From a virus (taxonomy: Duplodnaviria; Heunggongvirae; Uroviricota; Caudoviricetes): DNA of 64,000 bases. Shown here one piece after another: positions 5,992-41,326 of this stretch. The notes beneath the pieces are model-generated. The model did not search any database, was not told the origin of the DNA, and was given only the letters and a program-made list of their open reading frames with translations. Both the position numbers and the translations under genes were made by a program. Location of the stretch: positions 2,529 through 66,528 of the IMG/VR virus record IMGVR_UViG_2859180793_000001; one strand, written 5' to 3'. The stretch's first letter is position 1, and each line of letters starts with the position of its first letter.

Positions 5992-8900
5992 ATGAATCTT
6001 GGACACGCGCTCTCGGTGCGTTCCGACTTCTCGGTAGGAGAGTCGCTGCTGCAAGTCGGCCACCTCGTCGACAAGGCGAAGGAGCTGGGCTACAGCTCCG
6101 TTGCGCTCACCGACACCATGAGCCTGCACGCGATGGTGGACTTCACCAACCGTGCGAAGAAGGCGGGCATCAAGCCCATCATCGGCTGCCGCGTGCGCGT
6201 GGTTGACGATCCCACCTACCGCAAGCCGCCCAAGTCCAGCGGCGTCGCTGAAGTGCCGAATCTCGGCTACACCCTGAAGCTCTACGCGCAGGACGAGCGC
6301 GGCATCAAGGGCCTCATCAAGCTGCTCTCGAAAGCCAATTCGCCCGAGTATTTCTACTACGTGTCCCGCGTGGGCCTGGACGATGTGTGCGAGCTGGAGG
6401 GCGTCACCGTCACGACGGGCGACATGTTCAACCTGTTCCACCATCCGCAGGCGCAGGACAAGCTGGAGATGCTGATCAACGCGATGGGCCGCGAGAACGT
6501 CTTCGTGGAGCTGGTGCCGATCAATACGCCGCTGTTCGACACGCTCAACGCGAAGGCTCTCCAGGCAGCCGACGCCTTGACCGCCGCCACGCTCGTCACA
6601 TATCCGACCTGCTACCGCGAAGAGGACGACGCATCGAGCCTGGACGTGCTCGGCGCCGTCACCTCGAACACGAAGATGGACGTGCCGTATCGGCCGATCC
6701 AGTTCGTCAAGGACTTCCACTTCCAGGCGCCGAACCATCTGGTCGACCGGATCAAGGCCGCGCACGGTCGCGTGGTGAAGTTCAACGGCGTCAACCTGCC
6801 GTCTCTGTGGCTCGCTGGCCTGAAGAACGTGGAGGAAGTGGCCAAGAAGAGCGGCTACGAGTTCTCCAAGCAGCCGGTCTGCCTGCCCAAGATGGCGGCC
6901 AACGAATTCATGGAGCTGGGCCGCAAGTGCATCGAGGGCTGGAAGCGTCGGTTCTCGCATCCGGTGCTCGGCTACAAGCCTGACCCGTCGCTGATCCCCG
7001 CCTACAAGGACCGGCTGAACTATGAGCTGGCGGTGCTCAAGAAGATGGGCTTCGCTGGCTACTTCCTGCTGGTCGAGGACTTGGTGAACTGGGCCAAAGA
7101 GAACGGCATCATCGTCGGCCCTGGCCGGGGTTCGGTGGGCGGCTCGCTGGTCGCTTACCTGATCGGCATCACTGACGTGGACCCGATCCGCTTCAACCTC
7201 CTGTTCGAGCGCTTCATCAACCCCGAACGTCTGGACTTGCCTGACGCCGACCTGGACTTCATGTCGACACGCCGGCACGAGGTCATCGAATACCTCACCA
7301 AGCGCTACGGCGCCGACCGGGTGGCAGGCATCTCCAACTACTCGACACTCGCCTCCGCTTCGGCGCTGCGCGACACAGGCCGCGTGTATGGCTTGAGCGG
7401 CCTGGAGCTGATGGCGACCAAGCTCGTGCCCAAAGAGCACGGCCAGTCCTTCACGCTCACGGATGCCGCCAAAGCCGTGCCCGAGCTGGAGAAGTTCCGC
7501 GACGAGAACACGGAAATCTGGAGCCACGCGCTCAAGCTGGAAGGGGCCATGCGCTCGTTTGGCCAGCACGCAGCCGGTGTGATCGTGGCGGGCGAGCCGT
7601 TGATTGAGCGCGCCGTCGTGGAGACGCGCGGCGAGTCGCCGGTGGTGAACTGGGACAAGCGTGTCGTCGAGGACTGGGGCCTGGTCAAGATGGATATTCT
7701 GGGCCTGTCCACCCTCGACGTGCTGGAGATCGCCAAGAGCTACATCAAGGAGCGGCACGGCAAGGAAATCAACTACCTCTCCCTGCCGCTGGAGGAGCCC
7801 GACATTATGGCGGCCTTCGCTCGGGGCGATACGACTGGCGTGTTCCAGTTCGAGTCGGGCGGCATGAAGGGCCTGCTGCGCAACCTGGCGATGGGTGGCG
7901 ACCTGACCTTCGAGGACATTACTGCCGCCACTGCACTTTATCGCCCAGGGCCGATGGACTCGGGCCTGATGGACGACTTCATCCAGATCAAGCAGGGGTG
8001 CAAGCTGCCGTTCTACGAGCACCCCGCGATGGAGCCGGCGCTCAAGGACACCTACGGCGTCATCGTCTACCAGGAACAGGTCATGCAGCTGGCCGTCGAC
8101 CTTGCCGGCTTCACCCGCGCCGAAGCAGATCACCTGCGCAAAGCGATGGGCAAGAAGGACAAGGACAAGATGGCGGAGATGCGCCAGAAGTGGGTCGACG
8201 GCTGTCTCGCGACCAACGGCATGGACGAGACGAAAGCGGGCCCGCTGTTCGACAAGATCGAAGCCTTCGCAGGCTACGGTTTCAACCGCTCCCACGCGGT
8301 CGAGTATTCGATCGTGTCCTACTGGACGATGTGGGTGCGCGTGCGCTATCCGGCCGAATACTTCGCCGCGTGCATGTCGATCGTCAAGGAGGAGAAGTTG
8401 CCAGGGCTGGTCAGCGATGCGCGGGAATATGGGATCGAGATCCTGCCGCCGTCGATCAACCAGTCCACGCACCGGTTCACCATCCCTGACGACAAGCACC
8501 TGCTGGCGCCGTTTTCGAGCGTCAAGGGCATCTCCGAGAACACCGCACGCCGGATCGTGGAGCTGCGCAACGCGCAGGGCGGGGCGTTCAGGGACATGGA
8601 CCACTTCCTCGAAGTGACGGAAGCCAAAGGCTCGAAGGTCAACAGCAAGGTCCGAGACGCGCTGGACAAGGTGGGGGCGCTGGTGGAGATCCAGCCTGGC
8701 GCGAAGCCGGCACGAGCGCTGGAGCGTCGCCGCGATCAGACCGAGCTGATGCCTGGCCTCATCATCGACAGCGTGAAGGCCGACCGGCAGACCGACCTGA
8801 CGGAGAAGTTCCTGCGGGCGAAGGTGATCAGCCTCGTGCAGGAATACAAGAAGTGCGATGCGTGCTCGCTGGCGGGCCAGAACCACCCGACCGTGCGCGC

Positions 8901-9360
8901 CAAGAACACCGTCAAGTTCATGGTCGTGACGGACTGTCCGAGCTGGCAGGAAGAAAAGGCGGACAAGATGCTGGAGGGCGACAGCGCCACCTTCATCAAG
9001 GAAGCGCTGAAGGCGGCCGGCCTGGCGCCGGCAGAGGGCTACTACACCTCGCTGGTCAAGGCGAAGAAGGACGACAAGTTCCTGTCCAACGCGCAGATCA
9101 ACGGCTGCTCTGGTTTCCTCAAGCGGGAAATCGAACTCATCAAGCCGCCGGTGATCGTGGCGCTGGGCTCTGCTGCCATCAAGCACTTCATCCCTGGCAT
9201 CAAGGGCGGCACGGCGGAGCTGACTGGCAAGGCGATCTACGACAAGACGCTGGACGCGACCATCGTCTGTGGCTTCAACCCGCAGCAGTTGGTGTTCGAC
9301 GCGTCCAAACAGCCGGTTCTCGAAGCTGTGTTTGCGAAAGTTGCCGAGTGTTTGTCCTGA
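5992..9360 (+). CDS. dnaE: DNA polymerase III alpha subunit (DnaE-type) with C-terminal UDG family-4-like domain
   Basis: 1122 aa. PHP N-terminus. Palm motif [43 protein letters not shown]. HhH segment. The last about 200 aa ([51 protein letters not shown]) align to the family-4 uracil-DNA glycosylase fold. Confidence 0.9.
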   Translation: [1122 protein letters not shown]

Positions 9361-10481: not shown

Positions 10482-10497
10482 TTCCGAGTCAGATATA

Positions 10498-10516: not shown

Positions 10517-10611
10517 TAATTCGCTGAAACGAGGTAAGCGGTCGCCAATTTATCGGCGACTGCCCAACTCAAAAAGGCACCTCTCAACTCGAAACGAAAC
10601 AAGGAAAAGCG

Positions 10612-11451
10612 ATGGATGCAAACAAACTGATGAGCCTGATGAAGCAGAAGAAGGCAGCGCTCAAGACGAAGGAGAAGACTCTCAAGCCGACTCCGGGTTC
10701 GAGCCGCTACGTTCTGCTGCCGGGTTGGCGCAAGGGTGAAGAACACGTGTGGTTCCACGAGTTCGGTCAGCACTACATCAAGAACGCCGCGAAGGAAATC
10801 CAAGCGGTCTACCCGTGCGCCGAGAAGACCTACGGCAAGCCCTGCTCGATCTGCGAAGGTCTGAACAAGGCGATGCGCATGTCGGCCGACGACGAGACGG
10901 TGGAGCTGCTCAAGGAAGCCAACGCTGGTCAGAGCTTCCTGTTCAACGCTCTGGCGCTCGATGGCGACTCCCCGAACGAGCCGGCGATCCTCGAAGTCCG
11001 CAAGTCGGTCTTTGGCCAGATCGTTGACCTGATCGAGGACTGGGGCGGCAAGCTGTTCGACCCGGAAGAGCCGCAGATCATCACCATCAACCGTGAAGGC
11101 AAGGGCCTGAACACCAAATACAGCGTGCAAGTCTCGCCGAAGACCTACCCGCTGCCGAAGGGTGTTCTGTCCAAGCTGCACAACCTGGACGAGTATGTGG
11201 CGCAGGAAAGCGAAGAGCAGCAACGTCGCGCTCTGGCAGCCATCAACTCGGTCGCGGGCCTGCTGCCGCCCCCGACTCCCGCCGACAAGCCCAAGACTGC
11301 TCCGGCAGCCCTGAGCTACGACGATGACGACGCGGCGCTGACGGCCCTCGAAGAGCGTGACCGTGCGCAGGCTGCCAAGCCGGCCGCCGCATCGGCCAAG
11401 CTGGACGAGGAGCTGGACGACCTCCTGGGCGAACTGGAAACCGGCACCTGA
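10612..11451 (+). CDS. single-stranded DNA-binding protein, T4 gp32-like
   Basis: H-x15-C-x8-C-x2-C (HYIKNAAKEIQAVYPCAEKTYGKPCSIC) resembles the gp32 zinc site. Acidic C-terminal tail DEELDDLLGELETGT. Confidence 0.55.
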   Translation: MDANKLMSLMKQKKAALKTKEKTLKPTPGSSRYVLLPGWRKGEEHVWFHEFGQHYIKNAAKEIQAVYPCAEKTYGKPCSICEGLNKAMRMSADDETVELLKEANAGQSFLFNALALDGDSPNEPAILEVRKSVFGQIVDLIEDWGGKLFDPEEPQIITINREGKGLNTKYSVQVSPKTYPLPKGVLSKLHNLDEYVAQESEEQQRRALAAINSVAGLLPPPTPADKPKTAPAALSYDDDDAALTALEERDRAQAAKPAAASAKLDEELDDLLGELETGT

Positions 11452-11474
11452 TCGGTTCCCGCACTGGCCCGCAA

Positions 11475-11506
11475 GGGCCGGCACTTTCGGGTGCTGGCCC
11501 TTTTTT
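11475..11506 (+). terminator. rho-independent terminator after SSB gene
   Basis: GGGCCGGCAC/GTGCTGGCCC stem (one wobble) followed by TTTTTT. Confidence 0.6.
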
Positions 11507-11526
11507 CGTCTCAGGAGAGCAGTTTC

Positions 11527-12429
11527 ATGAGCAAGACCCTTTTGATCGACGGTAACTCCATCGGTTACGCCTGTCACAGCGGCACCAAGCTCACCGCTGG
11601 CGGCATGCAGACGCAGGCGGTCTTCGGCTTTGTCCGAGTCATGCGCGAACTGCGCCGCGAATACCCGAAGCACACGCCGATGGTCCTGTGGGACGGTCGC
11701 GCAGAGTGGCGCTTCCAGCTCCACCCACTCTACAAGTCCAACCGCGACAACGACCCGAAGAAGGTCGCCATGAAGGAAGCGTATGCCCAGCAGCGCCCCT
11801 ACATCGCACGCGCCTTGAAGCATCTGGGCGTGCGGCAGGTGACAGCGCTCAAGCATGAAGCGGACGACATGGCCGGCTACTTCGTCGCGGAGCTGACCAA
11901 GAACCCCGACAACGAGATTGTCCTCATCACCGGCGACGAGGACTGGATTCAGCTGGTGCGCCGCAACGTCACCTGGCGCGACATGCGCAACGACGACAAG
12001 AAGGTCAGCCTCGCCAACCTGTTCGACAAGACCGGCTACAAGACGCCCTATGCCTTCCTCGAAGGCAAGTGCTTGCAGGGCGATACGTCTGACGTGATCA
12101 GCGGCGTGGGCAAGATCGGCGAGAAGGGCGCGCCGGAGTTTCTGGCCGAGTTCGGCAGCGTGCGCGAGTTCTGGCGCCGCGTCGACGCTGGCGAGTTCAA
12201 GCCCAAATACGTGGCGCACAAGAACCTGGCATCGCCAGAGGGCCGCAAGATTTTCGCCCGCAATCTCAAGCTGATGCAGCTCCTCAAGGTTCACAAGCCG
12301 GCCAAAGAGGACATGCGCGTCGAGATTGGCAAGGTCGACGACGACGCCTTCCAGGCGCTGTGCGAAGAGCTGGCCTTCGCCTCGATTCTCAAGAACGTGC
12401 CGCTGTTCACCTCCATCTTCAAGCAATAA
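11527..12429 (+). CDS. 5'-3' exonuclease / flap endonuclease (Pol I N-terminal-like)
   Basis: MSKTLLIDGNSIGYACHS matches the 5'-nuclease N-terminal motif. Acidic clusters (ITGDEDWIQL). RBS CAGGAGAG. Confidence 0.8.
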   Translation: MSKTLLIDGNSIGYACHSGTKLTAGGMQTQAVFGFVRVMRELRREYPKHTPMVLWDGRAEWRFQLHPLYKSNRDNDPKKVAMKEAYAQQRPYIARALKHLGVRQVTALKHEADDMAGYFVAELTKNPDNEIVLITGDEDWIQLVRRNVTWRDMRNDDKKVSLANLFDKTGYKTPYAFLEGKCLQGDTSDVISGVGKIGEKGAPEFLAEFGSVREFWRRVDAGEFKPKYVAHKNLASPEGRKIFARNLKLMQLLKVHKPAKEDMRVEIGKVDDDAFQALCEELAFASILKNVPLFTSIFKQ

Positions 12430-12443
12430 AGGAACACACCACC

Positions 12444-13481
12444 ATGAGCAAGACCCTCGCAGACCTGTGCGATGACCTGGACAAAGCCATCGGCGCGAAC
12501 GCCGACAACCAAGCTGTCACGCAGTGGATCGATACCGGCTCGCCCGAGCTGAACTACGCCATCTCCGGTCGCTACGACGGCGGCTTGCCGTTTGGTCGGA
12601 TGGTCGAAATGTTCGGCGAGTCCTCGACCGGTAAGACCGCGCTGGCGACGAAGTGGATGGCGCAGGCGCAGGGCCTGGGCGGCGTCGCTGGCTTCATCGA
12701 CTGGGAGCGCTCGTTCAGCGTCGACCTGGCCACCGCCGGCTTCGGTCTGAATGACCGTCGTCCGCACTGGATCTACGGCAAGCCGCGCACGTGGGAAGAA
12801 GGCAACGTGCTCGCAGCGAAGGCGATCCAAGCCATTCGCAAGAGCGGCGCCATCGACGACAGCGCCCCGATCCTGTTCGTGTTCGACTCCATCGCAGCGG
12901 CCCTGCCCAAGAGCCAGGCTGAGAAGGAAATCGACGAATACACCATGAACGACACGACGGCGCTGGCGCGGGTCACGTCGACGACCCTCAAGGCAATGGC
13001 GCAGCACGCGGAGGAATACAACGCAACGTTCCTCTACCTGAACCAGATTCGCCTGAAGCCGGGTGTGGTTTACGGTGATCCGCGCACCACCCCTGGCGGT
13101 AAGGCGATGGAGTATTACTCGTCGGCCCGCATCGCGCTCGGCCGTCAGAAGATCATGGAGCAGAAGGGCGGCGAGAAGGAGTTCACCGGCCAGAACATCA
13201 CGGCGCAGGTCACGAAGTCCAAGTTCACCAAGCCGTTCAAGGAGGCCAACCTGCGCATGACGTTCGACGACGCCGGCGTGGCCCACTTCGACATGACGTT
13301 CTCGCTGCTGGAGTTCCTCATCGACAAGGGCGCCGTGCCGTATTCGAAGCCCTACGCAACCTGGGACGACGGCAAGAAGTATCACGTCAAAGCGCTCGCC
13401 AAGCATATTGACGAGACGGGACAGCAAGCAGTGCTGATGGCGAAGCTGCCGCCGCTGCCTGGTGTTGCAGTAGCCGCGTAA
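12444..13481 (+). CDS. RecA/UvsX-family recombinase
   Basis: Walker A GESSTGKTALAT and FIDWERSF resemble RecA GPESSGKTT / AFIDAEHA. About 345 aa. Confidence 0.75.
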   Translation: MSKTLADLCDDLDKAIGANADNQAVTQWIDTGSPELNYAISGRYDGGLPFGRMVEMFGESSTGKTALATKWMAQAQGLGGVAGFIDWERSFSVDLATAGFGLNDRRPHWIYGKPRTWEEGNVLAAKAIQAIRKSGAIDDSAPILFVFDSIAAALPKSQAEKEIDEYTMNDTTALARVTSTTLKAMAQHAEEYNATFLYLNQIRLKPGVVYGDPRTTPGGKAMEYYSSARIALGRQKIMEQKGGEKEFTGQNITAQVTKSKFTKPFKEANLRMTFDDAGVAHFDMTFSLLEFLIDKGAVPYSKPYATWDDGKKYHVKALAKHIDETGQQAVLMAKLPPLPGVAVAA

Positions 13482-13491
13482 TGCTGTAAGC

Positions 13492-13532
13492 AGCCCCTCC
13501 CTACAATCAGAGCATCGATTCTAGGGAGGGCT
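13492..13532 (+). promoter_or_regulatory. long hairpin sequestering the RBS of gene 13535
   Basis: AGCCCCTCCCTA ... TAGGGAGGG-CT arms (11-12 bp, one bulge) with an 18-nt loop. The right arm contains the GGGAGGG Shine-Dalgarno, 3 nt before the ATG. Confidence 0.5.
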
Positions 13533-13534
13533 CT

Positions 13535-13888
13535 ATGAGCACGCGAGTAGTTGGTTTTATCCCGCCAGTGGTGGGGACAGAAGGGGAATTCAACACGTTT
13601 CGTCTTGGCGGTTTCTACGCCAAAAGCCTCTCGGTGGGCGAGGAAGTGTTCCTGCTCAACGAGAAGGAGCGTCTGGTGTTCGGCAAGGCGGTTGTGACGG
13701 GTGTCGAAACCGGAAAGCTCGGCGAAATGTGCGCCATTCACGGCGACAAGAACCACACGGAGCTGGAAGTCTCCGGCGATGGGCGAAGCGCTGAACGTCT
13801 GTTCCACCTCTTGCAAAAGATTCACGGGCCGCACATCGCGACGCCCACCAAGAAGACCACCGTGATTTACATGCGGAGATTGGAATGA
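13535..13888 (+). CDS. hypothetical protein (117 aa)
   Basis: ORF with RBS. No recognisable domain. Confidence 0.5.
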   Translation: MSTRVVGFIPPVVGTEGEFNTFRLGGFYAKSLSVGEEVFLLNEKERLVFGKAVVTGVETGKLGEMCAIHGDKNHTELEVSGDGRSAERLFHLLQKIHGPHIATPTKKTTVIYMRRLE

Positions 13889-14268
13889 GCGACGGCAACA
13901 CACTCGATGACGTTCTGCACTTTGGCAAGCACAAGGGCGCTCCGATCAGGCAAGTCCTGAAGGTAGACCCGACATATCTGGCGTGGCTGCGCGACAAGAC
14001 TGCCGACGACATGCGGCAGTCTTTCTTCGACAAGGAAACCAATGATCTGATCGACGACGCGCTGCGCAAGATGAAGCGCAGCCGTCAGCGCATCTGGTCG
14101 GACAACCCGCCGCCCCACCTTGCGGATGCCCTCAAAGCCCAGGCCGAAGCACTGGAAGCGGCGCGGGAGCGTGAGGAGGAAGAGCAACAGGCGCTCGCCG
14201 CTCAGGCCGCCATGAGAGCCGCCCAGGCGCGCGACATGGCATATGCCCAAGAGTGGGGTGCCTGGTAA
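13885..14268 (+). CDS. hypothetical protein (ends ...EWGAW)
   Basis: ATGA overlap with the upstream gene. C-terminal G-x-W. Confidence 0.5.
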   Translation: MSDGNTLDDVLHFGKHKGAPIRQVLKVDPTYLAWLRDKTADDMRQSFFDKETNDLIDDALRKMKRSRQRIWSDNPPPHLADALKAQAEALEAAREREEEEQQALAAQAAMRAAQARDMAYAQEWGAW

Positions 14269-14561
14269 TGCGCAACGACTACAGCCGCGAGCGTCGCCGC
14301 TGGGACGCCATCTCAAGTCGCCATCGCGATATTGACCAGCGGTTCGAAGATCTGTTTGGCCTCGACGGGCAGTTCATCATCATGGATGAGGAGTGGCCGG
14401 TGGAGAAGCCAGAGCCGCGCCGCGTCGAGAAGGTCGTGACGGAAGCCGCCACCGGCAAGGCCGCACGCCGCGCGCAGAAGCGACAGCGCATGCAGGAGCG
14501 GATTGCAGAGGCCCAGCGCCGCGCCCACAACGAGCAGAACCTGGGCTGGGGAGGGTGGTGA
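14268..14561 (+). CDS. hypothetical basic protein (ends ...GWGGW)
   Basis: TAATG overlap with the upstream gene. Arg/Glu-rich. Confidence 0.45.
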   Translation: MRNDYSRERRRWDAISSRHRDIDQRFEDLFGLDGQFIIMDEEWPVEKPEPRRVEKVVTEAATGKAARRAQKRQRMQERIAEAQRRAHNEQNLGWGGW

Positions 14562-14923
14562 TGCGCTACCCGCACTCGGTGAACGGCCGCTTCTATGGCA
14601 ACTGGCATTACCTGCCGTCTGGCAAGGCACTCTACCTGGCGCACCGCCGCCCGAGCGAAGTATTTCACCGCCGCACGGCCTGGTGCATCGACGTGCGCAC
14701 GTTGGAAGAGGCCAAGACGCGCGGCATCTCCTACATCGGCGTGGTCACGCGCAACGGCAAGAAGCGCAATTTCTGGATCACCCTGGTGGAGGACTTCTTC
14801 ACCGATCCGCATAGCTTCAGCCACTTTGGGGACACACGCCAGCGCGGGCTCCCACTGTCCCGTTTTCGCATCAACCCGTCGGCAACCGCGAGCGCGATTG
14901 CTTCTGCCATGTCGCTTCGATAG
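14561..14923 (+). CDS. hypothetical protein
   Basis: GTGATG overlap with the upstream gene. 120 aa. Confidence 0.45.
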   Translation: MRYPHSVNGRFYGNWHYLPSGKALYLAHRRPSEVFHRRTAWCIDVRTLEEAKTRGISYIGVVTRNGKKRNFWITLVEDFFTDPHSFSHFGDTRQRGLPLSRFRINPSATASAIASAMSLR

Positions 14924-17097: not shown

Positions 17098-19041
17098 ATG
17101 GACTTCAAGACACTGCACATTCGCAACTTCCTCACCATCGGGGAAGCCAAGCTGGACCTGGATAATCGTGGCCTGCTGCTGATCCAGGGTGTGAACAATG
17201 ACGACCCGTCCGCATCTAGCAACGGCGCCGGCAAGTCGTCCATCGTAGACGCGCTGTGTTGGGTGCTCTACGGTGTGACGGCGCGTGACGTGACGGGCGA
17301 CGCCGTGATCAACGAGACGGCCGGCAAGGACTGCCGTGTGACGGTCGTGATCGAAGACGGCGCTGACACCTACGAAATCACGCGCGGCCGCAAGGACAAG
17401 GCGATCAAGAACGCCCTGATCGTCAAGAACCTGACCAGCGGCGCCGACCTCTCGAAGGGCACGGACAAAGAGACGCAGGAGGTGGTGAACACCATCATGG
17501 GCTGCTCGCTGGACGTGTTCTCCGCTGCCGTCTACGCGGGCCAGGAGAAGATGCCGGACTTGCCCGGCATGACCGACAAGCAGTTGAAGCTCCTGATCGA
17601 GGAGGCCGCCGGCGTGGAGGTGCTCTCTGACGCCTACGCCGAAGCCCGAGCCCGCGCGACAGCCGCAGACAATCTGCTCAAGATCGCCAGCTCGGCGGTG
17701 AACGCCCGCAAAGCGCACCTCGCCAACTGCGAGACCGAGCTGGCGAACGCTGAAAGCTCCAAGACGACGTTCGAGAACGAGCGCAAGGACCGCGCTCGCG
17801 CGGAGCTTGAGAAGATCAAGCCGATCGAGGCGGAACTCGTGCGGTTCAAGGCGCTGCTGGACAGCCACCCGCCCCGTGCAGATGTGGAGGCGGGGATTGC
17901 GGAAGTCGACAAGAGTCTTGGCGCCCTGAAGGCCGAGCAGGATCGCGTAATCGCCCTGAATGCGGCTGCGGCTGCCGAGCAGACCGCGCTCACCCGCAAG
18001 AGCGCCGAATTCGCTGCCGTCAAGCGCCGTCTGGACCAGGCAAATGCCGCCCTGGCGGACATTGAGTCGCAGGTGGGCAAGCCATGCGGCGAGTGCGGCA
18101 AGCCGTATTGCGAGCACGACCTCGAAACCGCCAAGCAGGCGCGCGCCAAGAGCATCGAGGAAATCAAGCGCGAACTGTTGCCGATTGCGACCGACCTGCG
18201 CGCATTGCAGGAAAGCGCAAAGCAGCGCGCAGAAGAAGCCGAAACGTTCAAGCAGTCGATGACCGACCCGAGCGCACTGGCTGCAAAGCGACGTGATCTG
18301 ACGACTGTCCTGAACGCGATCGAGTCGACGACGCGGGCCATCGAGAGCAAAGAAGCGGAGCGGCAGCGCATTCGTGACGCGGCGAAAGCCCACCTGACCG
18401 CGCCGAACCCCTGGGACAAGATCGTCTCCGACCGGCGCGATGCCCGCCAGCACTACGAGAACCTCCTGAAGAAGGAAGAGGAGGAGCTGGCCCAGGCCGA
18501 GAAGGCGAAGTCGATCGCCGAATCGGTGGTGCAGGTGTTCGGGCCGGCGGGCGTGCGTGCGCACATCCTCGACACGGTGACGCCGTTCCTGAACGACCAG
18601 ACCGCCGACTACCTGGGCATCCTCTCCGACGGCGTGCTGCACGCCACCTGGAACACGCTGGCCAAGACGGCGAAGGGCGACCTGAAGGAGAAGTTCAACA
18701 TCGAAGTCACCAACGACAAGGGCGGCAAGAGCTTCGCCGGCCAGTCGGGCGGTCAGAAGCGCAAGGTCCGTCTGGCGACGGCGATGGCGCTGCAAGACAT
18801 GGTGGCCAGCCGCGCATCCAAGCCGATCAACCTGTTCGTGGCAGACGAAGTGGACCACGCGCTCGACGAGGCGGGCCTGGAGCGCCTGATGACCGTCATG
18901 GAGCGCAAGGCGCGCGAGCGGGGCACGGTGCTTGTCATCAGCCACAACTCGCTCTCGGACTGGATCGACAACGTGATTACCGCCGAACTGAATGGTGGCA
19001 TCACGACCGTGACAGGAGCAACCGAGCGTGGCGCAGTTTAA
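17098..19041 (+). CDS. sbcC: SbcC/Rad50-like SMC-family ATPase
   Basis: N-terminal Walker A NGAGKSSIVDALCWVLYG. Long coiled-coil with a central CGECGKPYC zinc hook. C-terminal signature QSGGQKRKVRLATAMAL and Walker B LFVADEVD. Confidence 0.75.
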   Translation: MDFKTLHIRNFLTIGEAKLDLDNRGLLLIQGVNNDDPSASSNGAGKSSIVDALCWVLYGVTARDVTGDAVINETAGKDCRVTVVIEDGADTYEITRGRKDKAIKNALIVKNLTSGADLSKGTDKETQEVVNTIMGCSLDVFSAAVYAGQEKMPDLPGMTDKQLKLLIEEAAGVEVLSDAYAEARARATAADNLLKIASSAVNARKAHLANCETELANAESSKTTFENERKDRARAELEKIKPIEAELVRFKALLDSHPPRADVEAGIAEVDKSLGALKAEQDRVIALNAAAAAEQTALTRKSAEFAAVKRRLDQANAALADIESQVGKPCGECGKPYCEHDLETAKQARAKSIEEIKRELLPIATDLRALQESAKQRAEEAETFKQSMTDPSALAAKRRDLTTVLNAIESTTRAIESKEAERQRIRDAAKAHLTAPNPWDKIVSDRRDARQHYENLLKKEEEELAQAEKAKSIAESVVQVFGPAGVRAHILDTVTPFLNDQTADYLGILSDGVLHATWNTLAKTAKGDLKEKFNIEVTNDKGGKSFAGQSGGQKRKVRLATAMALQDMVASRASKPINLFVADEVDHALDEAGLERLMTVMERKARERGTVLVISHNSLSDWIDNVITAELNGGITTVTGATERGAV

Positions 19042-19726
19042 GTCTGGGACGCCGCTGGACCTCATCGGCGACCTGATGAAGCAGCCTTTCGCTGCGCCGA
19101 TGGTGCCGGTCCTGAGCATCAAGCGGCCGACGCGGACCTCGTTCAACGAGGCCATGAATGATTTTCTCAACACGCCTGGCTACAACAGCGCCGACGCCAG
19201 CGCCGCAGGTGGGCACGACGCCTACATGCGGTCGCTGCGCGCCGGGAAAGTGGCCAAGCACTCCACTGAAGAGGACACCATGAAGGAAAAGAAGGAGGTT
19301 GCTGCGCTTGTCAGCGACCTTGAGAAAGAGGCAGTTCAAGGCTACGAGGAGGCGTTCCGCGAGAAGCTGGTGAACTTTGAACTGCCCGAGCCCCTGAAGC
19401 TGACCGTGCGCAATGGCAGCGACTTCAACGTTAAGCCGTTCATTGGCGGGGAGGAGTTCACCCCGGTGCGGGGCTACGTGGGCAAGCGCGGCAAGACCAT
19501 CATCGTCTTCAAGCCTGTCGGAGTGGCCGACTTCGAGGAGATGGAGATGACGGAGGCGGACGCGAAGGCGACGTTCCCCGGTTTCAACCGCTACCTCAAC
19601 GACGCGCTGGGCGAGGTGATGGACAAGATCCAGGAGGCCCGCGAGGAGGTCAAGGCACAGGAGCGGGCGGAGGAGATCCGCTCGAAGGCAGAAACCTACG
19701 CCGAACAAGGCTTTGGGAGCTGGTGA
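19028..19726 (+). CDS. hypothetical protein (ends ...GFGSW)
   Basis: GTG start overlaps the sbcC end by 14 nt. Start is uncertain. Confidence 0.45.
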   Translation: MAQFKSGTPLDLIGDLMKQPFAAPMVPVLSIKRPTRTSFNEAMNDFLNTPGYNSADASAAGGHDAYMRSLRAGKVAKHSTEEDTMKEKKEVAALVSDLEKEAVQGYEEAFREKLVNFELPEPLKLTVRNGSDFNVKPFIGGEEFTPVRGYVGKRGKTIIVFKPVGVADFEEMEMTEADAKATFPGFNRYLNDALGEVMDKIQEAREEVKAQERAEEIRSKAETYAEQGFGSW

Positions 19727-20587: not shown

Positions 20588-21061
20588 ATGGCGAAGTCGC
20601 GCCTCCTTGAGCGTGTCAAGGAATACACCTTCACGGATGACTTCCATTTTTTCGGGGAGCGCTCTGCGCGTGAGCATCGCGAGTTGGAAAGGGCTAGAGT
20701 CGCCATCCGTCAGGACACGGCAGATGAGTGCCTGCACTGCACGCATGCCAAGTGGAATGTTGAGAAGCACCACCGAGCGTCCGACTTGACGCTCATTACC
20801 CGCGTGAGCGCCCGCTGTGGTGTTGCGCGGTGTGTCGAGGACATTCCGGCCATGCCGCCTACGCTTTCCCCCGCCTACCCCGAAACGTTCACTTTGGCGT
20901 CGGTCGCCAAAGAGACATGCTGGAAAGAGGTGGAGCTGAAGGGCGACCACTACGAGTCATGGGCCAACCAGAAGCGCGAGGCAATGTCGCTGATGAAGGA
21001 ATACAAAGCCCACGTCGCAAGCAAGGATACGCCGAAGACCATGCAGGAGGATGCCTGGTAG
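20588..21061 (+). CDS. hypothetical protein (ends ...QEDAW)
   Basis: 157 aa. Cys/His-rich segment CLHCTHAKW..C..C. Confidence 0.45.
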   Translation: MAKSRLLERVKEYTFTDDFHFFGERSAREHRELERARVAIRQDTADECLHCTHAKWNVEKHHRASDLTLITRVSARCGVARCVEDIPAMPPTLSPAYPETFTLASVAKETCWKEVELKGDHYESWANQKREAMSLMKEYKAHVASKDTPKTMQEDAW

Positions 21062-24873: not shown

Positions 24874-24924
24874 AAAGTGATGCAATCCCCGGTCGAAGTT
24901 GACCGGGGCTCAACAGGAGAATCC

Positions 24925-25500
24925 ATGAAAAAGCACAAACGAATCTTCACAGTTGGCCTGGCCATTGGCGTTGCGCTCGCGTTCGCAGGCTGCGGCCGCA
25001 CCGAGCAGGTCGCACAGATTCCGCAGCCGCAGGTCGTGCAGCAAGCCGCACCGGCAGCCGCTGGCCAACCAGTCATCGTCAACGCCGCGCCTGCGCAGAG
25101 CGGTGGCGGCATGGGCGACATGCTGATGGGTGGCGCGATCGGCTATCTGCTGGGCTCCAGCGGCAACCGCAGCGCCCCGGTCCACGAAGAGCGCCGCGTC
25201 ACCAATGTGACGAACGTGACCAAGCACTACCACGTCACCGAAGCGCCGAAGCCGGCTGCACCGGCAGCGCAAGCGGCCACGCCAGCAGCAACGCCCGCAC
25301 CGGCGCCGGCCAAGCCCGCCTACGCGCCGACCTACGCGAACAAGCCGGCAGCGCCGACCGCCAGCTACAGCCCGAGCTACGCGAGCAAGTCGAGCACCAG
25401 CTCCAGTTCGTCCAGCTCCTCTTGGAGTCGCCCGAGCAGTTCGTCCTACTCGTCGATGAGTCGCAGCAGTTCCAGCAGTTTCAGCAGCGGTCGCCGATGA
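24925..25500 (+). CDS. lipoprotein (Pro/Ala/Ser-rich)
   Basis: Start ATG with a CAGGAGA RBS. Signal peptide plus lipobox LAFAGC. Low-complexity C-terminal half. Confidence 0.55.
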   Translation: MKKHKRIFTVGLAIGVALAFAGCGRTEQVAQIPQPQVVQQAAPAAAGQPVIVNAAPAQSGGGMGDMLMGGAIGYLLGSSGNRSAPVHEERRVTNVTNVTKHYHVTEAPKPAAPAAQAATPAATPAPAPAKPAYAPTYANKPAAPTASYSPSYASKSSTSSSSSSSSWSRPSSSSYSSMSRSSSSSFSSGRR

Positions 25501-26889: not shown

Positions 26890-27567
26890 ATGAACTTCAA
26901 GGAATACCAACAGCAGGCGATCCTGACGGAGAGCGTGCCGGCGACCATCAACTTCGGCACCGTCAGCCTGCATGCGGCGCTGTCGCTGGCCATCGCCAAT
27001 GCCAAGATGATGGACCTCGTGAAGCGCGCCATCTTCTACGGCAAGCCCATCGACAAAGAGGACATGCTCAAGAGCCTGTCGGCGCAGGTCGAGATCCTGG
27101 ACTTCCTGGGCACGCACAACAACGAAGGCAACCTGGCCGACACGAACGACAAGGCGCTGTTCCCGGACCTGCCGCCGGCACTGGCGGGCGCCAAGCTGTC
27201 GAACATCAACGTCCGCCTGTTGCACGCGGCGGTGGGCATCTTCACCGAAGGCGGTGAAGCGCTGGAAGTCATCCTCAAGCAGATGGAGACTGGCGAGTTC
27301 GACGCGGTGAACTGGGGCGAGGAGATTGGCGGCGACGTGTCCTGGTATCAAGCCATCGGGCACCATGAAGCCGGCACCGACGAAGATGTGGAGCGCGAGA
27401 AGAACATCGCCAAGCTGCGCAAGCGCTACCCCGACAAGTTCAACCACCACGACGCCGTGAATCGCGATCTGGCGGGTGAGCGCGCCATCCTGGAAGGCAA
27501 GGTCTTGCCAGGCGGGGGTGCAACGCCGTTCGCTCCGGTCACTTCGACGGAAGCGGTGGCGGCTTGA
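26890..27567 (+). CDS. mazG: MazG-like nucleoside triphosphate pyrophosphohydrolase
   Basis: Start ATG with an AGGAGC RBS. LLHAAVGIFTEGGEALEVI matches the MazG/HisE EExxE helix. Confidence 0.6.
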   Translation: MNFKEYQQQAILTESVPATINFGTVSLHAALSLAIANAKMMDLVKRAIFYGKPIDKEDMLKSLSAQVEILDFLGTHNNEGNLADTNDKALFPDLPPALAGAKLSNINVRLLHAAVGIFTEGGEALEVILKQMETGEFDAVNWGEEIGGDVSWYQAIGHHEAGTDEDVEREKNIAKLRKRYPDKFNHHDAVNRDLAGERAILEGKVLPGGGATPFAPVTSTEAVAA

Positions 27568-28199
27568 TGATCGGTCTGTGCGGCGCACATCGCACCGGCA
27601 AGACCTCGCTGGCGCGGGCGGTCGCGGAGAAGCACGAGGACGTGCTTTTCCTCGAAACGCCGGTCAGCGGGATTTGCAAGGAGCTTGGCTTCGATCCGGC
27701 GCGCACCCATGACTTCAAGACCCGCCTGGAAGTGCAGGGCGAAATCTTGAAGCGAGTGGACGCCATCTACGCCAAGCACGCGGGAGAGCGAGCCATTACC
27801 GACCGCACGCCGCTCGACATGATCGCCTACACGATGGCCGACGCAATCGGCGATCGCGTGGCACAGGAAGACCAGCAGCGCTTCGCCGGCTACGTCCAGC
27901 AGTGCATCGACGTGACCAACAAGCGCTTTGGTGTCCTGATCGTGGTGCAGCCAGGCATTCCACTGGTGGCGGCAGAGGGCAAGGCAGCGCTCAATGCGGC
28001 CTACATCGAGCACCTGAGCGCGATCATCCTGGGCCTGTCTGTCGACGAGCGGGTGAAGCCACTGCACTTCTACCTGCCCCGGTCGATGACCGACATGGTG
28101 GAGCGCGTTGGGGCTGTCGAGTTCGCAATGGGGCGCGCTGAGAAGCGAGCCGAAGAGCAGATCGAGCGGGAAGTGGCCGGCGGTTATCGGCTGATGTAG
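27567..28199 (+). CDS. P-loop NTPase, putative nucleotide/nucleoside kinase
   Basis: TGATG overlap with mazG. Walker A GAHRTGKTS. About 210 aa. Confidence 0.55.
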   Translation: MIGLCGAHRTGKTSLARAVAEKHEDVLFLETPVSGICKELGFDPARTHDFKTRLEVQGEILKRVDAIYAKHAGERAITDRTPLDMIAYTMADAIGDRVAQEDQQRFAGYVQQCIDVTNKRFGVLIVVQPGIPLVAAEGKAALNAAYIEHLSAIILGLSVDERVKPLHFYLPRSMTDMVERVGAVEFAMGRAEKRAEEQIEREVAGGYRLM

Positions 28200-29231: not shown

Positions 29232-29732
29232 ATGGCTTCGATCGGCGATTCGGTCGAGCTGTCCTGGTTCGTCGGCAAAGAGTTCGAGCTTTCGGGCGTT
29301 CACGAGGGGCAGGTGCGGAACCCGCGCGTTGACGACTTCGCCACGCACTTTACGTTCGTTCTGGACGGGCGCGCCTACACGGCGGCGGAAGACCCGGACG
29401 ACGGCTACCGGTCGTCTTTGGAACGAGTTTTCTGCTCGTCAGTAGAGGATGTCACCAACCGGTTCCCGCCTGTGCGAGTGCGCGGCACTTGGTCCGACGA
29501 CATGGATGGAGCGAGCGGCGAGGTCATCCAGTTCAAAGATTGCGTGACGGGGCGAGTGGTCATCACGGTCGGCACACACAACCACGACGACTATTACCCG
29601 TGCTTTGTGGGCTCCTTCATTCCGGACAACATGGTGATCAACCGCTCGGAAGAAGAGCGCCAGTTGGCGCTGCAAGAGAACATGGCCGCGATCAAGGCGA
29701 AAGACGGTCAACGTGAATGGGGGACGTGGTGA
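29232..29732 (+). CDS. hypothetical protein (ends ...EWGTW)
   Basis: 166 aa. Confidence 0.45.
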   Translation: MASIGDSVELSWFVGKEFELSGVHEGQVRNPRVDDFATHFTFVLDGRAYTAAEDPDDGYRSSLERVFCSSVEDVTNRFPPVRVRGTWSDDMDGASGEVIQFKDCVTGRVVITVGTHNHDDYYPCFVGSFIPDNMVINRSEEERQLALQENMAAIKAKDGQREWGTW

Positions 29733-30205
29733 TGGCAAACGTCGGAAAGCTCAAGGAAGGCAGCTTGTTTGGAGCCACAGATGGAGTGAGCTGGCTCTAC
29801 TGCAAGGTGGCGAAGTTCGACGGCAGCGTCATCTACGCCCGCGTGATCAACGGCGCTTGGACCGCGCGCTTCAACACCGACGGCACCGTTGACGCAATCG
29901 GCTCTTGGGACCGGATCATGAACGAGGGCATCAAGGGCCTACGCATCGCCTTCACGGACGAGCTTCCAGAGGACGTGCGCGACGACTACAACGCCTCCAT
30001 CGATTACATGGATGCTCAGATGGCCAAGAACCCGGTTTCGCGCTACATGGCCGGCCGACTTTTGGGCATGCGGTTGCGCGTTGCGCGCTTGATGCGAGCC
30101 AGCCGAGCCGCCAAGAACGCATTCGCGCAAGCGTGGAGTCCGAAGCCGGCTGCACTGCACGCGGACGCGGACGAGGAAGAAGACGAGGATTCGATTCCCT
30201 TTTAG
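29732..30205 (+). CDS. hypothetical protein with SSB-like acidic C-terminal tail (...DEEEDEDSIPF)
   Basis: TGATG overlap with the upstream gene. The C-terminus ADADEEEDEDSIPF mimics the bacterial SSB tail DDDIPF. Confidence 0.5.
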   Translation: MANVGKLKEGSLFGATDGVSWLYCKVAKFDGSVIYARVINGAWTARFNTDGTVDAIGSWDRIMNEGIKGLRIAFTDELPEDVRDDYNASIDYMDAQMAKNPVSRYMAGRLLGMRLRVARLMRASRAAKNAFAQAWSPKPAALHADADEEEDEDSIPF

Positions 30206-32543: not shown

Positions 32544-33128
32544 ATGTTGGATCGCAAGTTTTTCGCGCAGATGTTGCGCGAGGTATCACCGGCAGAGGCA
32601 ATGCCGCACTCTGTCATCAACCACCACGTCAATGGCATGGATTACCTGTGCCTGCACCGCTCGGACAAGCTGACCGTCAAGCTCTATCTGGTGGAGAAGC
32701 CTACGAACCCACACAGCGGCTACCTGGTGCATCCGCACAGTCACCGCTATGCGTTCGGCAGCATCGTTCTGTGCGGGTCGTTGGAGCATATCCGCTTTAA
32801 GCGCTCGAAGGATGGCGACCTTTGGCGCGAGCACTACTACAACCCCGATCGCAAGACATTGACTCCGATGGACTGGGTTGCTCTCGAAGAGCGAGCGGAG
32901 CATCACGCCACCGGCAGCTCCTACTGGGTCGAGCCGGAAGAGATTCACACGCTGCGCATGCAAAGCCTCACCACGCTGATTGGCCTCGTGCAGTTCGGCG
33001 ACGCCAAGCGCGAGTCGGAACTGTTCCTGCCGGCCGGCCAACCGATGAATCGCTCGGAGGAGCGCAGGCCGACCTGGGAGGAGACGTATGCCCTCATTCA
33101 ACGCTGCCGCGCTCTGATTGGAGTCTGA
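32544..33128 (+). CDS. cupin-like protein (His-rich putative metal site)
   Basis: YLVHPHSHRYAFGSIVLCGSLEH resembles a cupin H-x-H...E...H metal-binding motif. Confidence 0.35.
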   Translation: MLDRKFFAQMLREVSPAEAMPHSVINHHVNGMDYLCLHRSDKLTVKLYLVEKPTNPHSGYLVHPHSHRYAFGSIVLCGSLEHIRFKRSKDGDLWREHYYNPDRKTLTPMDWVALEERAEHHATGSSYWVEPEEIHTLRMQSLTTLIGLVQFGDAKRESELFLPAGQPMNRSEERRPTWEETYALIQRCRALIGV

Positions 33129-33129
33129 T

Positions 33130-33705
33130 ATGAGCCTGATCATCACCGGCCTCGATACCGAAACCACCGGTCTGGAGCAAGCAGACGGCCACCGCATCAT
33201 CGAAATTGCGCTCCTCGAATACGACTTCGACAGCCGCAAGCTCGTGGACAAGTTCGTGCAGCGCATCGACCCCGAGCGCTCCATCAGCGCCGGCAGCCAA
33301 GCGGTTCACGGCATCACCTACGAAGAGCTGGTCGGATGCCCCAAGTGGCAAGACGTGGCGGGTGAGGTGCATGCGCGCATGCAGCGCTCGGACCTCGTGA
33401 TCGCACACAACATGGGATTCGATGGGCCGTTCGTGGGTGGCGAGTTGCTGCGGGTGGGCGTCGGGCTGCCCGAGATTGAGCCGTTCTGCACGATGGAGAA
33501 CGCGCGCTGGGCCTGCCCCGATGGCAAGTTCCCCAAGCTGATGGAGCTGTGCTTCGCCCTGGGCATCGAATACGACCCCGCTGCTGCGCACGCGGCCGAA
33601 TACGACGTGGACAGGATGATGCGGTGCTTTTTCGCGGGCCTGGATCGCGGCTTTTACCAACTGCCGGCCGACGTGCAGGCGAAGCTTCTGAAGGTGGCCG
33701 CATGA
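33130..33705 (+). CDS. DnaQ-like DEDDh 3'-5' exonuclease
   Basis: Exo I GLDTETTG, Exo II LVIAHNMGFD, Exo III HAAEYDVDRM. Confidence 0.75.
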   Translation: MSLIITGLDTETTGLEQADGHRIIEIALLEYDFDSRKLVDKFVQRIDPERSISAGSQAVHGITYEELVGCPKWQDVAGEVHARMQRSDLVIAHNMGFDGPFVGGELLRVGVGLPEIEPFCTMENARWACPDGKFPKLMELCFALGIEYDPAAAHAAEYDVDRMMRCFFAGLDRGFYQLPADVQAKLLKVAA

Positions 33706-37168: not shown

Positions 37169-37423
37169 GTGCTCACACAGGCGCAACTGGACACGGTGGC
37201 CGAGCTTCACAAGAAGCTGGAGGCCACAAAGCGATCGGCCCGGGGTCCGATCTTCGATCAACTGGACAAGATCCTCACGCCGGTTCTCAAGGCGGCGCAG
37301 ACGGCCAAGCAGGAGCAGATTGAGGGGTGGATCGCCTCGCTGCCGCTCGGCTTCTACCGCGCCGAACTGCGTGTGGTGGCCATCCACAGATTTAGCAAAA
37401 AGGAAGAGGAGCAAGCGGCATGA
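37169..37423 (+). CDS. hypothetical protein
   Basis: GTG start. 84 aa. Confidence 0.4.
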   Translation: MLTQAQLDTVAELHKKLEATKRSARGPIFDQLDKILTPVLKAAQTAKQEQIEGWIASLPLGFYRAELRVVAIHRFSKKEEEQAA

Positions 37424-37884
37424 GTCGAAGCATGTATGGCTATTTCGACAAGCAGGGCGACGGCATTTCGCACGGCGAGTGGCTCGCCCTGACCAAAGAC
37501 CCCGCGTATGTCCTGCTGCGGCAATACGACAACGGCCAGGTGCGCGCCACTGTGACCTGGGAGGGCAAGGTGCTCAACCCGCAGAACATGCTGCCGGACT
37601 ACTATCCGGTCCTGCGCCTGTCGGTGAGCAACTACGCCAGCGACGGCAGCCGCCGGCCGGACCCGGTGGAGGATGGCAAGACGTTCCCCAACGAGACGGC
37701 TGCGGTAGCCGCCTACGAGGAGTTCCTGGAGCGCTGGACAGCCAGCCACCGCGTCGAAGACGGGCAGACCGGCGAGTCCGAGTTCGTGGAGGTAGACAAC
37801 GACCTCGCGCCGCCTCCGCCGCCCGACAAGGATGCGCCCATGTCGACGGTGCCTGACGACGATGATGGCGTCGGCGCCTGGTAG
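37420..37884 (+). CDS. hypothetical protein (ends ...DDDDGVGAW)
   Basis: 154 aa. Confidence 0.45.
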   Translation: MSRSMYGYFDKQGDGISHGEWLALTKDPAYVLLRQYDNGQVRATVTWEGKVLNPQNMLPDYYPVLRLSVSNYASDGSRRPDPVEDGKTFPNETAAVAAYEEFLERWTASHRVEDGQTGESEFVEVDNDLAPPPPPDKDAPMSTVPDDDDGVGAW

Positions 37885-39995: not shown

Positions 39996-40913
39996 ATGGC
40001 AAAGCGCAACAACAAGAACGCTCAACTGAACATGTCGATGGGCGAAAACCTGGGTGCAATCATCGACGGCGCCAACGTCGATGAAAGCGCGATCCTCGAC
40101 TCGCTTCTGGAGGAAGTGTCGGGCGAGTCGAGCGCACCAGTGGAAGCCGCTGACGAGATCGTGGAAGCTGCCGATGACACGCCAGTGATCCCCGAAACCG
40201 AAATCGAGCCCGCCGTCGCGGCTGCCGACGACACGCCGGCCGATGCCGAAGCTCCGGCAGTGGATGCAGCGGCAGTGCCCGAAGAGGATCTGGAAGCCGC
40301 GCTGATCGGCATCGAGATCCAGGAAGCCACGCAAGCCGCCTACGCCGAAGCGGGCGATGCGGCCGACGAGGGCAGCGACGCTGACAAGCCCAAGACCGAC
40401 GAAGCGGCCGCAGCCGACACGAGCGCAGCGCCCAAGAAGGAAAAGGTCCGTCACGGCCCGCCGCTCACCAAGTCGCAGAAGGTCGTGGCCAAGCTGGGCG
40501 AGCGTGCGTCGGAGTTCCTTCTGCTGGAAATCAACGACGCCAGCCTGGACGAGGAGGCGCTCAAGCTGCGCCAGGAAGAGGTGCTGGCCGAAGTGGACGG
40601 CCTCGCCAAGAAGGTCGCCGAGAAGGCCACGATGCTCTTCGGTTGGCTCAAGAACGGGGGCAAGCTCAACGAGGTGATGCAGCGGACCTTCAAGGTGCTG
40701 ATCGAGGAGGGCGAAATCACGTCGGGCGTGAAGGGCAACCTCCAGTCGAACCTGTTGGCCAAGCCGTATAGCGCAGGCACCGCTGCCAGCCAGGCGAACC
40801 AGATGTTCATGCTGCTGCCGGCCCTCAAGGTCACGAAGAAAGAGAAGGGCCGCATGGTCGCCAATCCCGACTCGCTGATCTTGGCGAAGGCGAAGGCCGA
40901 GCTGGGCCTGTGA
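39996..40913 (+). CDS. hypothetical acidic protein
   Basis: ATG 39996 (GTG at 39987 is also in frame). Asp/Glu/Ala-rich N-terminal half. Conserved C-terminal about 120 aa. Confidence 0.5.
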   Translation: MAKRNNKNAQLNMSMGENLGAIIDGANVDESAILDSLLEEVSGESSAPVEAADEIVEAADDTPVIPETEIEPAVAAADDTPADAEAPAVDAAAVPEEDLEAALIGIEIQEATQAAYAEAGDAADEGSDADKPKTDEAAAADTSAAPKKEKVRHGPPLTKSQKVVAKLGERASEFLLLEINDASLDEEALKLRQEEVLAEVDGLAKKVAEKATMLFGWLKNGGKLNEVMQRTFKVLIEEGEITSGVKGNLQSNLLAKPYSAGTAASQANQMFMLLPALKVTKKEKGRMVANPDSLILAKAKAELGL

Positions 40914-41326
40914 TGGGCGAGGGGAGGGGCGACCCTCCCTCGATACGCAAGCCGCTTGCTTGCCAGGCGGCTTTCGCATCGACACCGGAGAACATCGTGG
41001 ACTTTTCCAAGCTCAATTCGCTATCAACCGACACCCTGCGCGCCATGAACTCGCACATCGTTGGCCTGATTCGTCAGCGACAGGCGATGGAACAGATGCA
41101 GGCCGGCTCAAAGCTGCGCATCGGCGGCAAGGCCATGTTCACGCATAGCAGGACCGGCGCACGTCACGCCATCGTGATCGACAAGATCAACACCAAGACG
41201 GTCGTGGGTAGGGAGCTGAACCCGGACGGCACCACGCGCATGACGTGGAAGGTCAGCCCGACGCTTCTCACCCTGGTGGACGATCGGCCCAAGACAACCG
41301 GCGCAGGGGTTGGCGCCTCCTGGTAG
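40913..41326 (+). CDS. hypothetical protein (ends ...GVGASW)
   Basis: Start uncertain (GTG 40910, ATG 40913, or downstream). Confidence 0.35.
   Translation: MGEGRGDPPSIRKPLACQAAFASTPENIVDFSKLNSLSTDTLRAMNSHIVGLIRQRQAMEQMQAGSKLRIGGKAMFTHSRTGARHAIVIDKINTKTVVGRELNPDGTTRMTWKVSPTLLTLVDDRPKTTGAGVGASW

Follow-up and report, generated by a model that had tools for sequence, protein, structure and literature searches.

Why should a phage protein with no recognisable sequence relationship to SSB (single-stranded DNA-binding protein) end in what looks like the C-terminal tip of bacterial SSB? The question is raised by a gene for a 157-residue protein in a 64,000-nucleotide stretch of DNA (hereafter the window; positions 2,529 to 66,528 of IMG/VR record IMGVR_UViG_2859180793_000001), which belongs to an element of ~110 kb, either phage or phage-plasmid, with RHEph10, nickie and SSU5 among its relations. 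The tip of SSB is the single handle that guides more than 12 bacterial genome-maintenance enzymes to single-stranded DNA (ssDNA) and is also an antibiotic target. It has been written as FDDDIPF, the SSB-C7 peptide (PMC13490951), and as DDDIPF in an excerpt of a further source (PMC5872125). Its partners in Escherichia coli include chi, DnaG, PriA, RecQ, RecO, RecJ, RecG, exonuclease I (ExoI), uracil-DNA glycosylase (UDG), topoisomerase III and RNase HI (see, for example, PMC5872125, PMC10018359, PMC10164576). The answer proposed here, with moderate confidence, is that phages have repeatedly grafted the SSB docking peptide onto a non-SSB, Tudor-like module, and that the resulting 'portable SSB tips' would rewire the SSB interactome by recruiting its members or by blinding them.

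Translation of the open reading frame (ORF) on the + strand closes with HADADEEEDEDSIPF and then TAG, and the C-terminus of the product is ...LHADADEEEDEDSIPF, with F157 standing directly before the stop codon and offering a free carboxylate. This is the sole SSB-like tail among the ORFs of at least 30 aa on either strand; no other ORF of that size in the window has [IVLM]PF behind an acidic stretch at its end, or even finishes in PF. A profile search over 1.84 billion protein cluster representatives found 128 relatives at E <=1e-3, of which 53 reached E <=1e-10. One of the 128 (P0118) resembles a false positive and a few match PHROG 11803 or PHROG 10586, both of unknown function. When the tails of 94 homologues, the long forms, were aligned through the helix that precedes them, 72 were found to end in [IVLM]PF, 15 in [IVL]xF (mostly I-A-F) and four in PF or PY. 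The other three end differently, one of them reading ...WDDDIPTVTL..., which resembles a frameshifted tip, and a terminal Phe is present in 91 of the 94. As a control for bias the profile was rebuilt without linker and tail, so that the tail could not drive recruitment, and 86 of the 92 homologues reaching the end of the helix still finished [IVLM][PAST][FY]. The logo anchored at the C-terminus (n=92) runs D/E 58%, hydrophobic 60%, D 67%, D 88%, D/E 71%, I 88%, P 84% and F. Its predominant form, D-hydrophobic-D-D-D-I-P-F, matches the C-terminal octapeptide of E. coli SSB (DFDDDIPF), including the hydrophobic residue at -7.

The contrast between the tip and the sequence immediately before it is marked. 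Information content at D153, I155, P156 and F157 is 3.6-4.3 bits, on a par with the core residues of the fold (V38, N40, G41, W43 and Y86), against 0.4-1.5 bits in the linker (residues 136-149), which in different family members is 8 to 36 residues long. The tail is far beyond chance because 86 of 92 homologues retain it under the tail-free profile and because the tip is so much richer in information than the linker; a conserved C-terminal tip behind a free linker is, on the pattern of sequence conservation, the signature of a short linear motif selected at a free C-terminus. In the window protein I155 and P156 occupy positions -3 and -2, with Ser at -4, Asp at -5, Glu at -6, Asp at -7 and more acidic residues upstream. 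A sequence-only reading of the window had taken this tail for a mimic of the SSB tip, a claim that would fail if homologues lacked it; with [IVLM]PF in 72 of the 94 long forms, and that ending or a close variant in 91, the tail stands as a look-alike under strong selection across the family. The 'long acidic linker' of the same reading did not hold up, linker and tip together amounting to only 22 residues. The run of acidic residues belongs to this clade alone, and across the family the linker is variable and rich in K, R and A.

The body of the protein is of another kind from SSB. Searches of Pfam, NCBIfam, PHROG and PDB sequences with the 157-residue protein gave no significant match, and in Pfam neither SSB nor gp32 (PF08804) was among the families matched. 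An AlphaFold2 model built from a 66-sequence alignment is confident (mean predicted local distance difference test score, pLDDT, 90.4; predicted template modelling score 0.73). It places seven beta-strands ahead of a short helix at residues 80-83 and two further helices at 86-98 and 101-135, the last being long and having a pLDDT of 90-97, with A130, F131 and W135 conserved. Residues 136-157 form a low-confidence tail in which the tip region is disordered. The core of the model is predicted to be a Tudor/SH3-like barrel and not the oligonucleotide/oligosaccharide-binding (OB) fold. The barrel domain of ~95 residues is recognised by the motifs V-I-N-G-x-W (38-43) and D-Y-N-x-x-I-x-Y-M (85-93), both of which the window protein has. 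Foldseek matched it to the capped Tudor domain of Sds3 (7sxi) and to the CarD and UvrD C-terminal RNA-polymerase-binding domains, with E >0.1 and 5-20% identity. The likeness to Tudor/SH3-like small beta-barrels is at the level of the fold only, and the phage family adds strands and a capping helix; there are seven strands in the model, compared with the five-stranded, strongly bent antiparallel barrel of the superfold.

Since no OB-fold core was found the protein is not a member of the SSB family, and the early description of it as unrelated to SSB agrees with both the Pfam result and the non-OB model. What it shares with bacterial SSB is the acidic C-terminal peptide ending I-P-F-COOH, the hydrophobic residue at -7, a disordered and unconstrained linker and the general logic of core, linker and tip. 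It differs from SSB of the PF00436 type in having neither OB fold nor SSB sequence signal, and a Tudor/SH3-like barrel with a basic helix in their place. The linkers differ in length as well: E. coli SSB has a disordered one of 56 residues (PMC7145534), and the 8-36 residues of the phage family are far fewer. The family is thus set apart from SSB proper: interaction through the SSB-tip hub is known, and the carrier of the tip is here a Tudor-like phage module.

It is also clear that the barrel occurs in several arrangements. Barrel-only relatives, 34 in number and ~85-125 aa long, end just past the D-Y-N-x-x-I-x-Y-M helix, and a tail-less, stand-alone barrel of 108 aa is encoded by EVB78_125 of Rhizobium phage RHph_N1_15 (locus L008, 31932-32258; local hidden Markov model E 9e-5). 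In phiCbK gp032 the barrel forms the C-terminal domain of a 221-aa protein with no SSB tail (locus L009, 3587-4252), and it is fused to unrelated N-terminal regions in P0096, P0119, P0131 and P0099. Six proteins (P0075, P0083, P0085, P0106, P0063 and P0103) combine barrel and tip in the absence of the long helix, which in P0063 and P0103 is replaced by a different middle region. The extra domains of the fusions (P0096, P0119, P0131, P0063, P0083 and others) had no match in Pfam, PHROG or PDB and therefore give no Rosetta-stone hint. Because it is found alone, in fusions, and with the tip but minus the helix, the barrel is an independent module that can be reused, and the combination that recurs is that of barrel and tip. 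Among 50,697 phage records neither megablast with the region as query nor tblastn with the protein gave a match, and tblastn with two other members gave none either. With the family consensus as query, tblastn gave only marginal matches to the barrel, in Caulobacter phiCbK-like phages. No match was found by tblastn in the PLSDB plasmids, and a search for related loci with a 5-sequence alignment found none in IMG/VR or in GTDB genomes.

The reading favoured here, for which belief and doubt are about evenly balanced, is that the protein is modular and carries the C-terminal tip of SSB as a two-ended adaptor, by which the phage would re-route the partners of host SSB to a site of its own choosing. 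The tip would insert into the SSB-tip pockets of host SSB-interacting proteins and the barrel would bind a second, conserved target, perhaps with the basic helix lying on DNA, so that an SSB partner held by the tip would be brought to the target of the barrel. The element encodes its own gp32-like SSB, which ends LDEELDDLLGELETGT (LGELETGT); its translation bears out the earlier statement that this protein lacks an IPF tip. In this phage, whose ssDNA would be covered by a gp32-type SSB with no tip, an obvious use of the adaptor would be to link host partners with that ssDNA again. One possible partner is the chi-containing clamp loader, which would be needed by a DnaE replisome that has no annotated clamp loader of its own. 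If the same partners were also sequestered, this would be a side effect, or else the alternative outcome. An adaptor is the most economical model, the tip being joined in every case to a second conserved module, and the modular evidence leans towards it rather than towards a pure decoy since the conserved barrel exists alone and in fusions and the tail is kept when the helix is lost.

Several observations weigh against the adaptor. The barrel is net acidic, which means that any DNA binding would be confined to the basic helix. The window tip itself carries Ser at -4, where Asp is canonical, and in ~16% of members the Pro at -2 is replaced by Ala, Ser or Thr, a change that recurs across the tree. 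Members ending I-A-F, I-S-F or I-T-F include P0006, P0016, P0019-P0021, P0024, P0047, P0049, P0077, P0083, P0090 and P0120. They are scattered on a neighbour-joining tree, some beside an I-P-F sister (P0021/P0025, P0019/P0009), and this suggests that the residue corresponding to P176 of E. coli SSB, the site of the ssb-113 (P176S) defect, has switched repeatedly. As Pro has been lost at the ssb-113 position, some of the Pro-less tips may bind the pocket by other rules; the recurrent switch from Pro to Ala also hints at tuning of partner selectivity. Finally, the closest cultured relatives, the Rhizobium phages, share the replisome genes and have the barrel in its tail-less form only. Since long forms occur in contigs of jumbo phages too, the tail appears, from this distribution, to be accessory, neither a core requirement of this type of replisome nor tied to the combination of DnaE with gp32.

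The alternative that survives best, unlikely though it is, is that the protein is a pure decoy. Abundant tips, perhaps made multivalent by oligomerisation of barrel or helix, would titrate partners off host SSB, and the outcome might be that host replication restart and repair are shut down, that phage ssDNA ends are shielded from ExoI and RecJ, or that a partner-dependent defence is blunted. Conservation of the tail fits a decoy as well as it fits an adaptor, and a patchy, accessory distribution with the tail missing from the closest cultured relatives is also what a decoy might show. Published work lends it some plausibility. Bas52_0087, a phage protein in which two OB folds are predicted beside an FDDDIPF tip, is required to trigger the DRT10 defence and has been proposed to compete or interfere with host ExoI/SbcB (bioRxiv 10.64898/2026.04.29.721553), and excerpts of two papers report that mimetics of the SSB tip perturb many partner interactions (PMC5872125, PMC10143822). 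Bas52_0087 is the nearest published case, sharing with the present family a phage origin and a host-type SSB tip on a disordered C-terminus; by prediction, however, it is an SSB-like OB-fold protein, whereas members of the present family are non-OB and far smaller (140-160 aa). No description of a non-SSB phage protein bearing an SSB tip was found in full-text searches of the literature.

The genomic setting bears on the decoy from both sides. The tail gene sits in arrays of small accessory genes and is among the genes that differ most between close genomes. Between the window and its orthologue in L001, a related 108-kb metagenomic contig (7795-8262), it is 84% identical, compared with 95-100% for most neighbours; between contigs L003 and L006 it is 63% identical, compared with 95-97% for the neighbours upstream, and identity in that pair (10001-14700) falls from ~97% to 33-81% in a block that begins at the family gene. 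Synonymous divergence (dS) of the tail gene between the window and L001 is 0.41, against 0.04-0.16 for most neighbours, with two other genes at 0.37-0.50. Positive selection on the tail gene was considered and rejected, dS being raised and the ratio of nonsynonymous to synonymous divergence (dN/dS) being ordinary (0.22). For the same reason the extra divergence looks like mosaic exchange of an accessory block and not like an arms race, which counts against a decoy. A decoy would also require levels comparable to those of SSB tails, and a conserved second module would be superfluous in it. The barrel nevertheless retains invariant residues at 20-30% overall identity, and it also exists alone and in fusions. 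The adaptor accommodates that second module more readily.

A more doubtful alternative is that the wiring is internal to the phage, the tip docking on a phage-encoded protein such as the primase, the UDG-like domain of DnaE, the epsilon-like exonuclease or the RecA-like recombinase. Shared ancestry of the pockets would then account for the likeness to host SSB, and there would be a parallel in phage T7. The acidic C-terminal tails of T7 gp2.5 and gp4, each of which ends in Phe, dock on the phage polymerase. They share with the present family a short acidic tail, a terminal aromatic residue and the use of a common replication docking peptide on more than one kind of protein; they differ in that their target is the phage's own polymerase and in that they have no I-P-F, where the present family has the host SSB consensus. 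In favour of internal wiring the tail gene lies in the replication and nucleotide-metabolism half of the genome, and the DnaE-UDG domain and RNase_T exonuclease of the element, as well as the DnaG-type primase of its relative, have cellular homologues that bind the tip. DnaE is the replicative polymerase of the element and has PHP, NTPase, finger and HhH domains, together with a C-terminal UDG-superfamily domain at residues 973-1105, the counterpart of which in E. coli alpha is the OB and tau-binding part. As E. coli UDG binds the SSB tip, this domain is, by analogy, a candidate phage-side partner for the tail.

Two comparisons stand against wiring of this kind. A host-type DFDDDIPF consensus spans phages of very different composition and gene content, and such a universal tip is expected if the target is a universally conserved host pocket. 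The Rhizobium relatives, moreover, have the same replisome genes and no tail. The nearest cultured phages by DnaE (~45% identity, same gene order) are the ~115-kb Rhizobium phages RHEph10 and RHph_N1_15, followed by Pseudomonas phage nickie, Stenotrophomonas phages and Klebsiella SSU5-like phage-plasmids. The annotated Rhizobium relative encodes DnaB, a DnaG-type primase, DnaE, epsilon, SSB and ligases, and neither a sliding clamp nor a clamp loader is among its annotations.

Very unlikely is a novel SSB analogue on a non-OB scaffold, in which helix and barrel would coat single- or double-stranded DNA and the tip would recruit partners. The layout of core, linker and acidic tip does parallel that of SSB. 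The helix has a net charge of +8 in the window protein (family median +5) and is basic in 98% of members. The fold matches also include nucleic-acid binders of this class of small barrel, namely the PWWP-ssDNA structure 6kco and Hfq-like proteins. The barrel, however, is mildly acidic (family median -2; the median for the last ten residues is -4), and the six members with barrel and tip have no helix with which to coat DNA. A gp32-like SSB is already present in the element, and no DNA-binding family signal was found for the 157-residue protein in Pfam and the other family-library searches. That the tail arose by chance, as an acidic C-terminus of low complexity with IPF at its end and no function of its own, is hardly credible and effectively refuted: the motif is short and the window version deviates at -4, but homologues of 20-35% overall identity keep the tip at the exact C-terminus in 86 of 92 cases with an unconstrained linker beside it.

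Phage proteins that exploit the SSB hub have been described from the opposite side of the interaction. The C-terminal domain of lambda Red-beta, Orf and RecT are readers of the host SSB tip (PMC6393309, PMC4118853, PMC13490951). They make use of the same hub, tip and pockets, as the present family would; the difference is that they read the tip and the present family bears it. If portable tips of the kind proposed exist, phages manipulate the SSB hub by motif mimicry, beyond reading the tip as Red-beta, RecT and Orf do, and the family would be a clear case from bacterial viruses of short-linear-motif mimicry of a host hub protein. It could also explain how phages with a gp32-type SSB still use, or neutralise, the partners of host SSB. 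Its members, the Pro/Ala variants included, would be natural, evolved ligands of SSB-tip pockets with which partner selectivity could be probed, and they would be candidate triggers or inhibitors of defences that monitor ssDNA metabolism (compare DRT10/SbcB).

That the gene is real, and starts where it is placed in Table 1, is supported by several lines of evidence. The ORF given by the sequence-only reading, with its 157-aa product ending DEEEDEDSIPF, is present at the same position, and its start has gained support. The ATG at 29732 is the likely start because orthologues open with MANIGKL, because it shares one base with the stop codon that ends the upstream gene (TGATG), and because GGGGA lies 7 nt 5' of it. 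A longer reading from an ATG at 29717 was set aside on the same three grounds. The dN/dS of 0.22 against the L001 orthologue indicates purifying selection and therefore a real gene, and an identical protein is listed at NCBI as 'hypothetical protein [Ralstonia pickettii]' (P0001). The overlap of the upstream stop with the tail-gene start suggests translational coupling, and the arrangement of the two genes recurs in L001. Searches of Pfam and PHROG with the product of the upstream gene found no match, and a scan for promoters and terminators around the tail gene gave no signal exceeding shuffled expectation.

Table 1. Positions in the window of the tail gene, the parts of its product and the other genes discussed
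Feature	Position	Strand	Remarks
Gene for the 157-aa SSB-tip carrier protein	29732..30205	+	ATG 29732; TAG 30203-30205; stop included
Tudor/SH3-like beta-barrel with capping helix 86-98 (predicted), residues 1-99	29732..30028	+	7 strands, residues 12-74
Basic amphipathic 36-residue helix (predicted), residues 100-135	30029..30136	+	C-terminal A-x-x-A-F-x-x-x-W conserved
Disordered hypervariable linker (predicted), residues 136-149	30137..30178	+	pLDDT about 56-62
Acidic tip E-D-E-D-S-I-P-F-COOH, residues 150-157	30179..30202	+	SSB C-terminal tip look-alike
Upstream gene, 166 aa, no assigned function	29232..29732	+	C-terminus ...EWGTW
DNA polymerase III alpha (DnaE), bacterial-type	5992..9360	+	Pfam; 45% identical to RHph_N1_15 DnaE
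gp32-like SSB	10612..11451	+	Pfam gp32 3.8e-18; zinc-finger-like Cys cluster, acidic C-terminus
Trp-ending gene	13885..14268	+	C-terminus EWGAW
Trp-ending gene	19028..19726	+	C-terminus GFGSW
Trp-ending gene	20588..21061	+	C-terminus EDAW
Trp-ending gene	37420..37884	+	C-terminus GVGAW
Trp-ending gene	40910..41326	+	C-terminus GASW

The window is ~62% G+C and nearly all of its genes lie on the + strand. Besides the replication genes already mentioned, Pfam recognised CobT-like and CobS-like proteins, a sigma factor, a RecA-like recombinase, Mre11/Rad50-like nuclease subunits, a class I ribonucleotide reductase, ThyX, an AAA_28 NTPase, a Band_7 protein, a UvsW-like helicase, the epsilon-like RNase_T exonuclease (33118-33705), two ParB-like proteins, the large terminase and the major capsid protein. 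The ParB-like genes (52345-53805) occur together with a full lytic-type replication set and structural genes, as in the SSU5/RHEph10 group of phage-plasmids.

The surroundings of the family gene vary from one genome to another. Jumbo-sized contigs (198 kb, and as much as 338 kb on record) are among those with a long form, and in them the tail gene lies between NMN-adenylyltransferase/Nudix and AAA_28 genes on one side and a T4-type RNA ligase on the other, and another long form is found near a dCMP deaminase in a 32-kb contig of small ORFs. An AAA_28 NTPase gene is found 1.5-7 kb upstream of the family gene in the lineage of the window and L001, in L003 and in L006, the copy in the window (27564-28199) being 1.5 kb away. 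The immediate neighbours are not conserved over the deep family, an upstream gene being shared only by L002, L003 and L006, and they consequently offer no guilt by association. In L003 (150-4029) and L006 (1-3766) genes for CoaE/dNK-like, NMN-adenylyltransferase, NMNAT-Nudix and AAA_28 (NadR-like) proteins lie a few kb upstream of the family gene, and by their sequences they look like an NAD salvage module.

Two minor features of the window may be added. ARAGORN called an 87-nt tRNA-Arg(gcg) at 25243-25329 on the - strand, inside an ORF at 24877-25500. An Rfam scan of the window found neither a tRNA nor any other RNA family, and the call is probably false in view of this lack of Rfam support. 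The second concerns a further C-terminal ending, [G/D/E]-[A/S/T]-W, which is found in six of the 65 called + strand genes (Table 1) although Trp is a rare residue, one of these being the gene that is translationally coupled to the tail gene. The L001 orthologues retain the Trp motif, which the Rhizobium relative lacks. It is not an artefact of ribosome-binding sites, as only two of the six endings overlap a downstream ATG, and it may serve the phage as another docking motif at the C-terminus.

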